NCBI RefSeq assembly: GCF_003334405.1
Contig: NZ_QOWM01000003.1
Strand: one strand, 5' to 3'
Length of the DNA stretch: 64,000 bases
From: Escherichia coli
Lineage (GTDB): Bacteria > Pseudomonadota > Gammaproteobacteria > Enterobacterales > Enterobacteriaceae
Shown here: positions 8,500-52,664 of the stretch, piece after piece
Layout: each line of letters begins with the position of its first letter
How positions within the stretch are numbered: position 1 is the first letter of the stretch
Notes under the pieces: generated by a model
Seen by the model: the letters and a program-made list of their open reading frames with translations, nothing else
Told to the model about the DNA's origin: nothing
Database searches by the model: none
Translations under genes and position numbers: made by a program

Positions 8500-8590
8500 G
8501 TTGGCGGATGCGGCGCGAGTGCCTTGTCCGCCCCAGAACGCACCACAATCGTAGGCCTGAGAAGACGCAACAGCGTCGCATCGGGCAATC
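8500..8590. repeat. REP/BIME-type extragenic palindromic repeats
   Basis: ggatgcggcgcgagtgccttgtccgcc and cgtaggcctgagaagacgcaacagcgtcgcatcgggc match the two REP consensus types (GCCGGATGCGGCG... and ...GCGTCGCATCAGGC) just downstream of yebF. Confidence 0.55.
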
Positions 8591-9461: not shown

Positions 9462-9642
9462 TTCCGCTCTCTGGATAGCCTGAAGTTGACTATTTCGGGC
9501 TATCCAGAATCGCACAGCCATTTGAACAGGCTGATTTTCTCTGTCTGCATAACATTCGATATCCGCGCCATTACCTGTCATCATCTAAGCAATGACTCCC
9601 CTGTTTCGCTTGCATCCCCGGTGAGTTTTGCCACCCTTATAA

Positions 9643-38483: not shown

Positions 38484-40082
38484 TTAACGTAACGGCATAA
38501 TGGGCGTGATATGTCCATTATGCCGGGCGGGCGGCGGTTGGCTGCCCGCCAGCCATTTGGGAAAATCACGTAGCGGCATCGGCTGTGCGTACAAATACCC
38601 TTGCAAAATATGCACGCCATGACGGCGCAAATACTTCGCCTGTTCTTGCGTTTCCACGCCCTCCGCCACCAGTTCAATATTCAGTCTTTGCCCCAGCGCG
38701 ATGATGATATCGGTCACCGTCGAGTTAACCGCGTCAGAACCTATAGCTGCGGTAAATGACTTATCAATTTTCAGCACGTCAGGACGTAATGTTTCAAGCC
38801 AGGAAAACGAGCTGTTGCCGGTGCCGAAGTCATCAATCGCCAGTTTGACGTTTTTACGATGCAGCTCGCGGGCAATCCGATAATCAACATCCAGTAAGGC
38901 ATCGCGTTCGGTGATTTCGAGGATCAGTTGCTGAATCGGGTGAGCGCTAAACCAGTACTGATTGAGATCTTTTATCAGCACACCACGGCGAAAATGGCTG
39001 GGTGCGACGTTAATGCCAACATGAAACTGACTACTCATCGGGAAAACATGGCGCTGACGAATGGTTTCTGCCATCACATAGCGGGTCAGTGGCACAATTA
39101 AATGATGTTCTTCCGCGATAGGAATAAACACATCCGGTGAAATCCAGCCCTGACGCGGATTGTTCCAGCGCAGCAAAATCTCTACACCAATACATTGCTG
39201 GCTGCGCGCATTAAGCAAAGGCTGACAGAACAATTCGAACTCATGTTGCGCCAGGCCCAGATTGATTTCGCGGGAAAAGCTCATTCGGTAAGCGGTCGCC
39301 AGCCAGGCGATGTAGCCCACCAGTAAACTTAGCAGCACCGCCAGCGGTAATTGTGTTGGAAGATAGTGCCATGCCAGCGCCGTAGCCCCCGGACCATTAA
39401 CGTTAATGGTAAAAGGAAAGCGTTGCGAAGAAACCTGATAGTTTTCATTGTCTTCAGGTTGCGGAAGGGAATCTACCAGCCCATTACCATAGAGCAAATG
39501 CCGTTTGTCCACCGTCAGGCTGGCGCTACTGATTTGCGGCAGTTGTGGCTCAAGCAGCATTGCCGTCAGTAAGTCGATGTTAATCATCTCCATGACCCCA
39601 GCATTGCTACTGCCCGCTGCAGGCGTCCATTGAATCAAAACCGGACTGCCTTTAATCAGGGCACGGTCGATCGTCAGGCGTAAAAGTGGTTGCGGTGCAG
39701 GAAGTTCAGCCAGAATGTCCACGACGGGCACATTGCGATAACCAAAAATGCTGGAGCAATAAAGTGTGCCGTCTTGCACCAGGCCAATGGATCGCACAGT
39801 TTGGAGTTTTGCCGCCTGTTTACGTAATGGCAAATGGGCGACAGAGCAGGGCAGACCAATCAGCGGAAGCAAGACTTCGCTACCTGCCTGTAGGGGAAGC
39901 AGTACTTTATCTAATTCCTCTACAGCGTGATTGGCGAATTGTACTACCCGTTGTTGATTTAAGTTACGCTGTGAAATAAATCGCACGCTCAGGGTCGAAG
40001 CGAGCGTAACGAGTGCGCAAATCGTACAAACAATCATTCGATTACGACGATAGGTTTTAATGATCCGTTGTGCTTTTTGCAT
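38484..40082 (-). CDS. pdeD: c-di-GMP phosphodiesterase PdeD (YoaD), CSS-domain + EAL
   Basis: Track ORF 38484-40112 trimmed to MQKAQRIIKTYRR... (532 aa); EAL-type signature ...LILEITERDAL... seen. Confidence 0.88.
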   Translation of the reverse strand: MQKAQRIIKTYRRNRMIVCTICALVTLASTLSVRFISQRNLNQQRVVQFANHAVEELDKVLLPLQAGSEVLLPLIGLPCSVAHLPLRKQAAKLQTVRSIGLVQDGTLYCSSIFGYRNVPVVDILAELPAPQPLLRLTIDRALIKGSPVLIQWTPAAGSSNAGVMEMINIDLLTAMLLEPQLPQISSASLTVDKRHLLYGNGLVDSLPQPEDNENYQVSSQRFPFTINVNGPGATALAWHYLPTQLPLAVLLSLLVGYIAWLATAYRMSFSREINLGLAQHEFELFCQPLLNARSQQCIGVEILLRWNNPRQGWISPDVFIPIAEEHHLIVPLTRYVMAETIRQRHVFPMSSQFHVGINVAPSHFRRGVLIKDLNQYWFSAHPIQQLILEITERDALLDVDYRIARELHRKNVKLAIDDFGTGNSSFSWLETLRPDVLKIDKSFTAAIGSDAVNSTVTDIIIALGQRLNIELVAEGVETQEQAKYLRRHGVHILQGYLYAQPMPLRDFPKWLAGSQPPPARHNGHITPIMPLR

Positions 40083-48762: not shown

Positions 48763-50448
48763 TTGAAGAAGGTTTGGCTTAACCGTTATCCCGCGGACGT
48801 TCCGACGGAGATCAACCCTGACCGTTATCAATCTCTGGTAGATATGTTTGAGCAGTCGGTCGCGCGCTACGCCGATCAACCTGCGTTTGTGAATATGGGG
48901 GAGGTAATGACCTTCCGCAAGCTGGAAGAACGCAGTCGCGCGTTTGCCGCTTATTTGCAACAAGGGTTGGGGCTGAAGAAAGGCGATCGCGTTGCGTTGA
49001 TGATGCCTAATTTATTGCAATATCCGGTGGCGCTGTTTGGCATTTTGCGTGCCGGGATGATCGTCGTAAACGTTAACCCGTTGTATACCCCGCGTGAGCT
49101 TGAGCATCAGCTTAACGATAGCGGCGCATCGGCGATTGTTATCGTGTCTAACTTTGCTCACACACTGGAAAAAGTGGTTGATAAAACCGCCGTTCAGCAC
49201 GTAATTCTGACCCGTATGGGCGATCAGCTATCTACGGCAAAAGGCACGGTAGTCAATTTCGTTGTTAAATACATCAAGCGTTTGGTGCCGAAATACCATC
49301 TGCCAGATGCCATTTCATTTCGTAGCGCACTGCATAACGGCTACCGGATGCAGTACGTCAAACCCGAACTGGTGCCGGAAGATTTAGCTTTTCTGCAATA
49401 CACCGGCGGCACCACTGGTGTGGCGAAAGGCGCGATGCTGACTCACCGCAATATGCTGGCGAACCTGGAACAGGTTAACGCGACCTATGGTCCGCTGTTG
49501 CATCCGGGCAAAGAGCTGGTGGTGACGGCGCTGCCGCTGTATCACATTTTTGCCCTGACCATTAACTGCCTGCTGTTTATCGAACTGGGTGGGCAGAACC
49601 TGCTTATCACTAACCCGCGCGATATTCCAGGGTTGGTAAAAGAGTTAGCGAAATATCCGTTTACCGCTATCACGGGCGTTAACACCTTGTTCAATGCGTT
49701 GCTGAACAATAAAGAGTTCCAGCAGCTGGATTTCTCCAGTCTGCATCTTTCCGCAGGCGGTGGGATGCCAGTGCAGCAAGTGGTGGCAGAGCGTTGGGTG
49801 AAACTGACCGGACAGTATCTGCTGGAAGGCTATGGCCTTACCGAGTGTGCGCCGCTGGTCAGCGTTAACCCATATGATATTGATTATCATAGTGGTAGCA
49901 TCGGTTTGCCGGTGCCGTCGACGGAAGCCAAACTGGTGGATGATGATGATAATGAAGTACCACCAGGTCAACCGGGTGAGCTTTGTGTCAAAGGACCGCA
50001 GGTGATGCTGGGTTACTGGCAGCGTCCCGATGCTACCGATGAAATCATCAAAAATGGCTGGTTACACACCGGCGACATCGCGGTAATGGATGAAGAAGGA
50101 TTCCTGCGCATTGTCGATCGTAAAAAAGACATGATTCTGGTTTCCGGTTTTAACGTCTATCCCAACGAGATTGAAGATGTCGTCATGCAGCATCCTGGCG
50201 TACAGGAAGTCGCGGCTGTTGGCGTACCTTCCGGCTCCAGTGGTGAAGCGGTGAAAATCTTCGTAGTGAAAAAAGATCCATCGCTTACCGAAGAGTCACT
50301 GGTGACTTTTTGCCGCCGTCAGCTCACGGGATACAAAGTACCGAAGCTGGTGGAGTTTCGTGATGAGTTACCGAAATCTAACGTCGGAAAAATTTTGCGA
50401 CGAGAATTACGTGACGAAGCGCGCGGCAAAGTGGACAATAAAGCCTGA
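48763..50448 (+). CDS. fadD: Long-chain fatty acid--CoA ligase
   Basis: Track ORF 48697-50448 trimmed to the TTG start giving [24 protein letters not shown]... (561 aa). Confidence 0.93.
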
Positions 50449-50468
50449 GCGTTAAGTCAGTCGTCAGA

Positions 50469-50493
50469 CGCCGGTTAATCCGGCGTTTTTTTT
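50469..50493 (+). terminator. Rho-independent terminator after fadD
   Basis: Hairpin cgccggttaatccggcg followed by tttttttt. Confidence 0.7.
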
Positions 50494-50517
50494 GACGCCC
50501 ACTAAAGAGAAAACAAT

Positions 50518-51645
50518 TTGAATTACCAAATGATTACCACGGACGATGCGCTGGCTTCTTTGTGTGAAGCCGTCCGTGCCTTTCCGGCGATAGCCCTGGA
50601 TACTGAATTTGTTCGTACGCGCACTTATTACCCGCAGCTGGGGTTGATTCAACTTTTCGATGGCGAGCATCTGGCGCTAATCGATCCACTCGGGATCACC
50701 GACTGGTCACCGCTGAAAGCGATCCTGCGCGATCCGTCCATCACAAAATTTCTCCATGCAGGCAGTGAAGATCTGGAAGTGTTCCTCAATGTCTTTGGCG
50801 AATTACCACAACCCTTGATTGACACGCAAATCCTTGCTGCCTTCTGCGGACGCCCGATGTCATGGGGTTTCGCTTCCATGGTGGAAGAGTATTCCGGCGT
50901 TACGCTGGACAAGAGTGAATCGCGCACCGACTGGCTGGCCAGACCGCTGACCGAACGTCAGTGTGAATACGCAGCGGCGGATGTCTGGTATCTGTTACCG
51001 ATCACCGCCAAGCTTATGGTAGAAACGGAGGCCTCCGGCTGGCTACCTGCGGCGCTGGATGAATGCCGCCTGATGCAAATGCGTCGTCAGGAAGTCGTTG
51101 CGCCGGAAGATGCCTGGCGTGATATCACCAATGCCTGGCAATTACGCACACGCCAACTGGCCTGTCTGCAACTGTTAGCCGACTGGCGACTGCGCAAGGC
51201 GCGAGAGCGCGATCTGGCGGTGAACTTTGTCGTGCGTGAAGAGCATTTGTGGTCGGTAGCGCGTTATATGCCGGGAAGTTTAGGCGAACTGGACAGCCTG
51301 GGTTTATCCGGTAGCGAAATCCGCTTTCACGGTAAAACGCTGCTAGCGCTGGTGGAAAAAGCGCAGACATTGCCGGAAGATGCCTTACCGCAGCCGATGC
51401 TTAACCTGATGGACATGCCGGGTTATCGTAAAGCGTTTAAAGCGATTAAGTCGCTGATTACTGACGTGAGCGAAACGCATAAGATCAGCGCCGAATTGCT
51501 GGCATCGCGTCGGCAAATCAACCAACTGCTGAACTGGCACTGGAAACTGAAACCGCAGAACAATTTGCCGGAGCTGATTTCCGGCTGGCGTGGTGAGCTG
51601 ATGGCGGAAGCATTACACAATTTATTGCAGGAATATCCGCAGTAA
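50518..51645 (+). CDS. rnd: Ribonuclease D
   Basis: Track ORF 375 aa with a TTG initiation codon (established for rnd); DEDDy exonuclease and HRDC domains. Confidence 0.93.
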   Translation: MNYQMITTDDALASLCEAVRAFPAIALDTEFVRTRTYYPQLGLIQLFDGEHLALIDPLGITDWSPLKAILRDPSITKFLHAGSEDLEVFLNVFGELPQPLIDTQILAAFCGRPMSWGFASMVEEYSGVTLDKSESRTDWLARPLTERQCEYAAADVWYLLPITAKLMVETEASGWLPAALDECRLMQMRRQEVVAPEDAWRDITNAWQLRTRQLACLQLLADWRLRKARERDLAVNFVVREEHLWSVARYMPGSLGELDSLGLSGSEIRFHGKTLLALVEKAQTLPEDALPQPMLNLMDMPGYRKAFKAIKSLITDVSETHKISAELLASRRQINQLLNWHWKLKPQNNLPELISGWRGELMAEALHNLLQEYPQ

Positions 51646-51698
51646 AATCTTCCGAAGCCGGACTGGGCGCGCTCAGCGCCACATCCGGCTTCGGCAAA

Positions 51699-52664
51699 CT
51701 ACAAATCCAACACCAGGCGTTTACCCTTCGCACGCGAACAACAGATCAACATACTTTGCTGGCTGGCACGCTCTTCATCGCTAAAATATTGATCCCGATG
51801 GTCAGCTTCACCTTCCAGTATTGCTGTTTCGCAGGTTCCGCATACCCCTTCACGACATAAACATTCCACTTTCGCGGCTTTATTATTTTCAATAACCTGC
51901 AAAATAGTCATCTCTTCCGGCACCACAAACTCTTTTCCGGAACGGGCAAGCACCAGGGTAAATGCATCGCCGGTTTTGTCTTCGATAGCAAATTGCTCAA
52001 AGTGCAGCGTATCGGCGGCGATGTCCAGACGCGCAGCTTCACTTCTTACCGCTTCAATTAGCGCCTCGGGGCCACAGGTATAAACGTGTGTGCCAGGTTC
52101 GATATCCGCCAATAATCGCGCTAATTCCAGTCGTGTTCCGGTTGATGAATGATGCAAATGGACTTTCTCAGCCTGCGGATGCTGGACTAGCTCATCACGA
52201 AATGCGCAACTTTCTGGATTTCGCGAGCAGTAATGTAGCTGCCAGTCGACGTCGCTGTGTTGCAGCTCTGCCATGTGCGACAGGAAAGGGGTGATACCAA
52301 TACCGCCCGCGATAAACAGATGCTTTCTGGCTGAGGGAATTAGCGCAAACAGGTTATTAGGCGTTGAAATCGTTAACCGATCGCCCACTTTTACCTGCTG
52401 ATGCAAAAAGCGGGAACCGCCGCGCGAGTTTTCCTCCAGCCGAACGGCAATCTGATAACAAGAGGTGTCATGCGGCGAACTCAGTAGTGAATACGCATTG
52501 CTGTACTGGTTATCACCATCGCTCATCTGCACAATGACGTGACTTCCTCCGGTAAACGCAGGTAATGGTTTGCCATCGGTTGCCACCAGCGTGAAGCGTT
52601 TCACCTGTTCGGTAAGGGGTTCAACCTGGCTCACCTGTACTTCAAACATTTGATAGTCTGACAT
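51699..52664 (-). CDS. yeaX: Carnitine monooxygenase reductase subunit (YeaX/CntB)
   Basis: Track ORF 321 aa; FNR-like flavin/NAD domain plus C-terminal plant-type [2Fe-2S] motif CREGVCGTC. Confidence 0.9.
   Translation of the reverse strand: MSDYQMFEVQVSQVEPLTEQVKRFTLVATDGKPLPAFTGGSHVIVQMSDGDNQYSNAYSLLSSPHDTSCYQIAVRLEENSRGGSRFLHQQVKVGDRLTISTPNNLFALIPSARKHLFIAGGIGITPFLSHMAELQHSDVDWQLHYCSRNPESCAFRDELVQHPQAEKVHLHHSSTGTRLELARLLADIEPGTHVYTCGPEALIEAVRSEAARLDIAADTLHFEQFAIEDKTGDAFTLVLARSGKEFVVPEEMTILQVIENNKAAKVECLCREGVCGTCETAILEGEADHRDQYFSDEERASQQSMLICCSRAKGKRLVLDL

Follow-up and report, generated by a model that had tools for sequence, protein, structure and literature searches.

The feature considered here sits at the junction of two convergent genes of Escherichia coli, in a window of 64,000 nucleotides (the whole stretch of DNA that was analysed, numbered from its first letter). 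On the + strand, rnd (50518-51645; TTG start, TAA stop at 51643-51645) encodes RNase D; on the - strand, yeaX (52664-51699; TAG stop at 51699-51701) encodes carnitine monooxygenase reductase. The spacer between them measures 53 nt, 43 of which are taken up by an imperfect palindrome at 51652-51694 that is extragenic and lies between both stop codons. From the rnd stop to its first paired base there are 6 nt, and its last paired base, at 51694, stands 4 nt from the stop of yeaX, so the overlap with the yeaX stop codon described in the original prediction was mistaken. The sequence of the locus is that of K-12, with no differences, and the palindrome occupies K-12 positions 1886815-1886857.

The upstream end of rnd has peculiarities of its own. 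The gene is a monocistronic unit in SMRT-Cappable-seq, the tables of which give for rnd only a transcription start site and that unit. The published start site (K-12 1888063, window ~50446) falls within the fadD stop codon, with the rnd TTG following at 50518; in the region between the two (50446-50518) lies the strong intrinsic terminator of fadD/sroD, its stem at 50466-50488 followed by a T-run to which Term-seq 3' ends map (K-12 1888018 and 1888020, window 50489-50491). As the terminator stands between start site and start codon, rnd transcripts must read through it in their own leader. Another Term-seq 3' end is internal to rnd (K-12 1887883, window ~50626, ~108 nt into the coding sequence; Adams et al. 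2021) and scores about as highly as the end mapped at the fadD terminator.

The structure itself, which had been described as a GC-rich inverted repeat with a stem of about 11 bp and an internal palindrome, is real and its sequence exactly as quoted. The outer 5' arm CCGAAGCCGGA (51652-51662) pairs with the outer 3' arm TCCGGCTTCGG (51684-51694) over 11 bp with zero mismatches; a 3x3 bubble (CTG / ACA) then separates this stem from an inner one of 5 bp, GGCGC (51666-51670) with GCGCC (51676-51680), closed by the 5-nt loop GCTCA. As RNA the hairpin has minimum free energies of -33.9 (+ strand) and -34.2 kcal/mol (- strand), with z-scores of -7.4 and -7.3, respectively, and none of 200 dinucleotide shuffles was as stable. 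Its stability is thus far beyond chance, and in a scan of 45-nt folds across both strands of the 64-kb window it ranked first, at -35.3 against -28.0 kcal/mol for the runner-up. That runner-up (9466-9510, + strand) is a 17-bp stem just beyond the yebE stop codon; another stable fold, with a 15-bp stem (-26.2 kcal/mol), is found at 38488-38532 on the + strand.

Descent from a REP element was examined with a covariance model (R1) built from genuine Y-type units, of which K-12 supplied four (REP325 among them), other genera two and this window one, together with the literature consensus; it was run with filters off, and its E-values are only roughly calibrated. The hairpin gave a full-length + strand match (51653-51690; model positions 1-35 of 35) of 16.1 bits, with a roughly calibrated E-value of 0.033, in which the former GTAG head lies beside the rnd stop codon. 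This was the third-best match in the window, behind its two true REPs (8502-8536 with 48.7 bits, a member of the training set, and 8551-8587 with 29.5 bits), and the best background match reached 11.1 bits. Those two true REPs constitute the BIME between yebE and yebF (8502-8587), a Y-like unit lacking GTAG (head CTGG) beside a Z1-like unit that has it. In the model alignment, the inner stem and loop of the hairpin (51666-51680) are the counterpart of the GGCG...CGCC inner stem of Y-type REPs, and the - strand reads GCCGGATGTGGCG..., in agreement at 12 of 13 positions with the published REP consensus at its head, GCCGGATGCGGCGTGAACGCCTTATCCGGCCTAC.

The decisive evidence on ancestry comes from comparison with other Enterobacteriaceae, where tblastn picked out, among 80 rnd loci, those that have a convergent yeaX. 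Within Escherichia the flanks at the rnd-yeaX junction can be aligned, and the hairpins therefore occupy the same locus. The orthologue in lineage E69, GTAAGCCGGACAAGGCGCAACCAGCGCCGCATCCGGC, scores 41.3 bits with R1 (E = 4e-9) and is a near-consensus Y REP, identical to the published Y consensus at 28 of 30 positions outside the loop; that of Escherichia sp. E1V33 scores 29.6 bits, that of E. albertii 19.0 and that of strain SCPM-O-B-8794 14.9. Amongst the E. coli variants described below, a C-to-T allele scores 11.6 bits, whereas the short alleles do not reach the threshold. Set against the Y-type REP or palindromic unit (consensus GTAGGCCGGATAAGGCGTTCACGCCGCATCCGGCA; PMC3333891, PMC12306157), the hairpin shares the architecture and most stem bases, that is, GCCGGA, a 3-nt bubble, GGCG, a loop, CGCC, a second 3-nt bubble and TCCGGC, as well as an extragenic position between convergent genes and near their stop codons. 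It differs from it in its head (CGAA rather than GTAG), in its 5' bubble (CTG rather than TAA) and 3' bubble (ACA rather than GCA), in a longer loop, in five additional outer base pairs and in having no other genomic copy by BLAST. The head position is itself variable, reading CGAA in the window, GTAA in E69 and E. albertii and CTGA in E1V33, and in E. coli proper we take it to have mutated from GTAG/GTAA to CGAA; GTAA is also the head of one genuine unit of K-12 REP325, whose inner stem is likewise GGCGC/GCGCC. The first five nucleotides of the outer arm, CCGAA, sit where the GTAG head of a REP would be and pair with TTCGG in the 3' flank to add 5 bp to the stem. Two of these five pairs are missing in other Escherichia lineages. 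Only E. coli proper and Escherichia sp. MOD1-EC7003 have CCGAA, whilst the GCCGGA/TCCGGC core is invariant across Escherichia. The long K-12 allele has the mismatched bubble typical of a REP, which is an imperfect palindrome of ~35 nt; the short allele, a perfect stem, does not.

From these alignments, we read the hairpin as a decayed, solitary Y-type REP that has lost its GTAG head. The K-12 copy on its own is marginal (E ~0.03 on a rough calibration) and the short allele goes undetected, both of which speak against such descent; the reading draws instead on the orthologues at the same junction, which are far closer to a Y REP and bear out the original suggestion of a REP-like element. GTAG is needed for binding and cleavage by TnpA_REP (Ton-Hoang et al. 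2012, PMC3333891); the hairpin lacks it, and the element is thus presumably immobile. Other searches were less productive: Rfam at a permissive threshold returned no match in 51300-52000, and nhmmer with single Y, Z1 and Z2 consensus queries, an approach of low power, did not reach the hairpin and found only the E69 orthologue (E = 34). A strict regular expression for the Y core proved useless as a test of family membership, finding only rnd-yeaX orthologues and missing true REPs. The K-12 RefSeq record has no repeat feature at rnd/yeaX, an omission that is uninformative given that the record is equally blank at true REPs (the yebE-yebF BIME and REP325).

The original prediction also offered a bidirectional terminator for the convergent genes, a reading that finds no support as far as an intrinsic terminator is meant. 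In the rnd sense (+ strand) the stem is followed by CAAACUACAAAUCC (CAAACUAC...) and in the yeaX sense (- strand) by AAGAUUUUACUG (AAGAUUUUAC...), with no U-tract on either, where an intrinsic terminator would have 7-8 nt rich in U. TransTermHP-type tail scores of -1.56 and -1.85 miss the cut-off of -2.5, real terminators nearby scoring around -5 (that of fadD, 1.1 kb upstream, -5.0), and the hairpin was not called in a consensus terminator scan. The rnd-proximal flank is A-rich (AAAATCTT) and the yeaX-proximal flank reads CAAACTACAAATCC, which does not amount to a pairing of A-tract with U-tract; for comparison, the terminator after rnd in Kosakonia runs AAAAAAGGCAGA...TCTGCCTTTTTT. Curated Term-seq 3' ends from three conditions (Adams et al. 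2021, PMC7815308) include none between K-12 1886400 and 1887099 on either strand, and no mapped 3' ends for rnd or yeaX appear in the TERMITe supplements, the RepRanger supplements or the SMRT-Cappable-seq termination site tables. Both genes are weakly expressed, and the missing Term-seq end is weak negative evidence. Of the two checks proposed for the repeat, folding thus returned a stable structure whereas Term-seq mapped no 3' ends at the hairpin. As a canonical terminator of the intrinsic type, whether for one gene or for both, the hairpin does not qualify.

A different form of termination is suggested by published data from beyond the stem. In supplementary file 2 of Adams et al. 2021 (PMC7815308), a Rho termination region antisense to yeaX is reported at K-12 1886672 (- strand; score 5.03, p = 9e-8), where downstream/upstream reads change from 22/56 in untreated cells to 89/45 with bicyclomycin. 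The peak corresponds to window position 51837, 143 nt beyond the hairpin in the direction of rnd transcription, at the coarse resolution of a score computed in 800-nt windows from small read counts. Across 51695-51934 on the + strand, the untranslated RNA antisense to yeaX is C-rich, G-poor and rut-like, with a C/G ratio of 1.6-3.3 compared to 0.9 in the rnd coding sequence, which is as expected for a region of Rho loading. Transcription of rnd probably ends through Rho, downstream of the hairpin.

Several lines of background give this arrangement a precedent. At steady state, Rho-dependent transcripts have been found to end right after stable stem-loops that lack U-tracts and have rut sites just 3' of them; REPs often supply these stem-loops, which block PNPase and RNase II (Dar & Sorek 2018, PMC6061677), and the same pattern of Rho and stem-loop is attributed there to Peters et al. 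Harris et al. 2026 (bioRxiv 10.64898/2026.03.23.713779) describe REP325 as both a partly Rho-dependent terminator and an mRNA stabiliser, and place ~60% of REPs in the gaps of convergent gene pairs; REPs are as a rule extragenic and occupy 3' UTRs, the genes on either side being tandem or convergent. The rnd-yeaX hairpin shares with the U-less protective stem-loops (PMC6061677) a stable stem-loop right after the coding sequence, RNA with C in excess of G just 3' of it and, further on, a bicyclomycin-sensitive region of readthrough, but the steady-state 3' end that defines the class is not listed at the hairpin by Adams et al. 2021. With REP325 (yjdM-yjdN) it shares a REP hairpin in a 3' UTR for which partly Rho-dependent attenuation and protection from decay have been proposed; REP325, in contrast, strings together ~12 canonical units in tandem and lies between genes that themselves follow one another, whereas a single degenerate unit between convergent genes is found here.

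On balance, and by a narrow measure, we think it probable that the hairpin is a decayed, solo and immobile Y-type REP, fixed in the rnd-yeaX spacer of Escherichia, that acts as a U-less 3' stem-loop of both mRNAs. The hairpin would be transcribed into the 3' UTRs of both. RNA polymerase would read through it; on the rnd strand, Rho would then load on the C-rich untranslated RNA just 3' and terminate transcription within ~100-250 nt; finally, 3'-to-5' exonucleases would trim the transcript back to the hairpin, leaving the body of the mRNA protected. As the hairpin is palindromic, the same service could be rendered to yeaX, and converging polymerases may be slowed from either side. The structure, its single-copy status, the affinity to REPs, the lack of U-tracts and a published Rho-dependent region downstream are what is shown; exonuclease protection and any pausing or insulation are roles that we infer. 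It counts against them that a trimmed 3' end at the hairpin, which this sequence of events predicts, is absent from the lists of Adams et al. 2021 for either strand.

The main rival to a working 3' stem-loop is that the spacer, little constrained over its 53 nt, simply harbours a dead REP without function, its shape kept or perfected by replication template-switching in quasi-palindromes rather than by selection. The distribution of the element within E. coli bears on this from both directions. A blastn search with the 55-nt element found it in 5424 of 5426 complete genomes, at a median of one place per genome; apparent extra copies were rejected, the second places being self-matches of the palindrome on the opposite strand (40.1 bits for the short allele). 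Such near-universal presence, taken with the invariant GCCGGA/TCCGGC core, argues mildly against a neutral relic. Within the species, on the other hand, the element is polymorphic at high frequency, as a relic might be. Besides the K-12 form there are alleles with a single C-to-T change at 51668 or 51692, where in either case the rnd-sense RNA still pairs, as G.U, and the O157:H7 allele carries a C-to-T change in the flank, at 51649; that the stem changes keep a G.U pair only in the rnd-sense RNA constitutes two events, and the strand preference is not significant. In addition, around a quarter of genomes carry a short allele from which the 7 nt CGCCACA (51677-51683) are absent (1352 genomes in the 80-90% identity band). 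All outgroups have the long form, which makes the long allele ancestral and the 7-nt gap a deletion.

The nature of this deletion can be argued either way. The short allele is a perfect stem of 14 bp with an 8-nt loop and no bubble, at -31.9 kcal/mol, and collapse into a perfect palindrome is the product expected of template-switch 'correction'. Yet of the 23 distinct 7-nt deletions that the hairpin could suffer, loss of CGCCACA is the one that best preserves stability (-31.9 against -26.8 kcal/mol for the next and a mean of -21.8), and in this it also surpasses any deletion of 4-12 nt. That the deletion allele is nearly fully stable, and that the stem has been lengthened and not eroded in E. 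coli, count against simple decay. Strains with yeaX can carry the short allele, and so can strains that have lost the gene, such as ATCC 25922 and JA0265. In these two (loci L005 and L002:4347-4600, respectively) a deletion has removed yeaX, yeaW, yeaV and some of the tartrate dehydrogenase gene; what remains is ~8 terminal yeaX codons and pseudogene fragments followed by leuE, with the short-allele hairpin kept beside the breakpoint. Across the species, the match stops ~25 nt beyond the hairpin in ~1050 of the 5426 genomes.

Beyond E. coli the picture is similarly divided. All the rnd-yeaX junctions that were compared, from Escherichia as well as Citrobacter, have a strong hairpin despite differing sequences, and persistence across two genera through such turnover speaks against a relic. 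In favour of one, the hairpin of E. albertii is much weaker (-20 kcal/mol), the GTAG head has been lost, no double-sided compensatory changes occur among nine Escherichia sequences, where the covariation score stays at the level of shuffles, and in one Escherichia lineage the rnd reading frame enters the 5' arm with no apparent harm. That lineage is Escherichia sp. MOD1-EC7003 (L054:3120-3175), where TAC stands in place of the TAA stop of rnd and the frame gains seven codons (YNLPKPD), running through the 5' arm to a TGA inside the hairpin; the sequence 3' of its hairpin is unrelated to yeaX. The Citrobacter hairpins are strong and REP-like but match R1 in the opposite orientation (14-21 bits), which leaves homology beyond Escherichia uncertain. 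Further afield, canonical GTAG...CTAC REP/BIME pairs lie downstream of rnd in Enterobacter and some Kluyvera, and textbook terminators of A-tract, hairpin and T-tract in Kosakonia, Klebsiella, Raoultella and other Kluyvera. The first 110 nt after the rnd stop (loci L011-L086) turn over fully between genera, and the convergent downstream gene differs too. The site after rnd thus turns over but always carries a hairpin. Weighing these observations, we regard a functionless relic as unlikely, whilst granting that it is the most serious competitor.

A more ambitious reading of the same alleles is that the dead REP has been exapted as an insulator selected for its structure and shared by the two convergent genes: once the head recognised by the transposase was lost, selection on stability alone would have lengthened the stem and passed only the 7-bp deletion that keeps the fold, and the hairpin would set both 3' ends and damp the termination of translation in both genes. 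This seems to us improbable; were it true, the locus would offer a clean natural example of mobile REPs domesticated into gene-end elements.

The damping of translation can also be considered on its own, and is compatible with the protective stem-loop. Terminating ribosomes would have to unwind the hairpin and would stall, yielding less RNase D and YeaX. According to Liang et al. 2015, as summarised elsewhere, ribosomes terminating at a stop codon less than 16 nt from a REP are stalled by it, and the hairpin, no less stable than a canonical REP, lies within that distance of both stop codons, 6 nt from one and 4 nt from the other. There is, against this, no rnd or yeaX entry in the RepRanger supplements, and in Citrobacter the distance between hairpin and stop codons varies; we hold a translational damper to be quite doubtful. 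Least credible is a bidirectional intrinsic terminator, in which the hairpin in either transcript would release the polymerase where rnd meets yeaX. The convergent genes do have a GC-rich hairpin of great stability exactly between them, Kosakonia, Klebsiella and Kluyvera do have an A-tract, hairpin and T-tract after rnd, a short UUUU run does follow the stem by 4 nt on the yeaX strand and the collision model of bidirectional terminators does give a hairpin a role in pausing, but the rnd strand is without a U-tract and the yeaX strand has only that displaced 4-U run, the tail scores miss the cut-off, the hairpin is not called in the consensus scan, Term-seq has no 3' ends at the site, and bicyclomycin-sensitive readthrough downstream shows that, on the rnd strand, polymerases travel past the stem. 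What the hairpin does share with overlapping bidirectional terminators (Ju et al. 2019, as presented in bioRxiv 10.1101/2022.10.23.513370) is a single palindrome serving two convergent units, with possible pausing from both sides; unlike the canonical examples after rnd in Kosakonia and Klebsiella, it lacks the flanking pair of A-tract and U-tract, and no paired 3' ends are mapped to it.

Returning to the decayed REP as a 3' stem-loop of both mRNAs, one must keep its importance in proportion. The hairpin is real and very strong but ordinary, a REP-derived 3' stem-loop of an already known kind, and matters little beyond annotation, where it documents in the rnd-yeaX spacer of E. coli a degenerate REP-derived hairpin and not an intrinsic terminator. 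It does provide, at one locus, a graded series from the near-consensus REP of lineage E69 to the unrecognisable perfect palindrome of the short allele, and with it a view of REP decay alongside the 'perfecting' of a stem. Moreover, the two structural alleles that segregate at high frequency in E. coli may serve as a natural experiment on whether the shape of a 3' hairpin affects the expression of RNase D or carnitine monooxygenase reductase.
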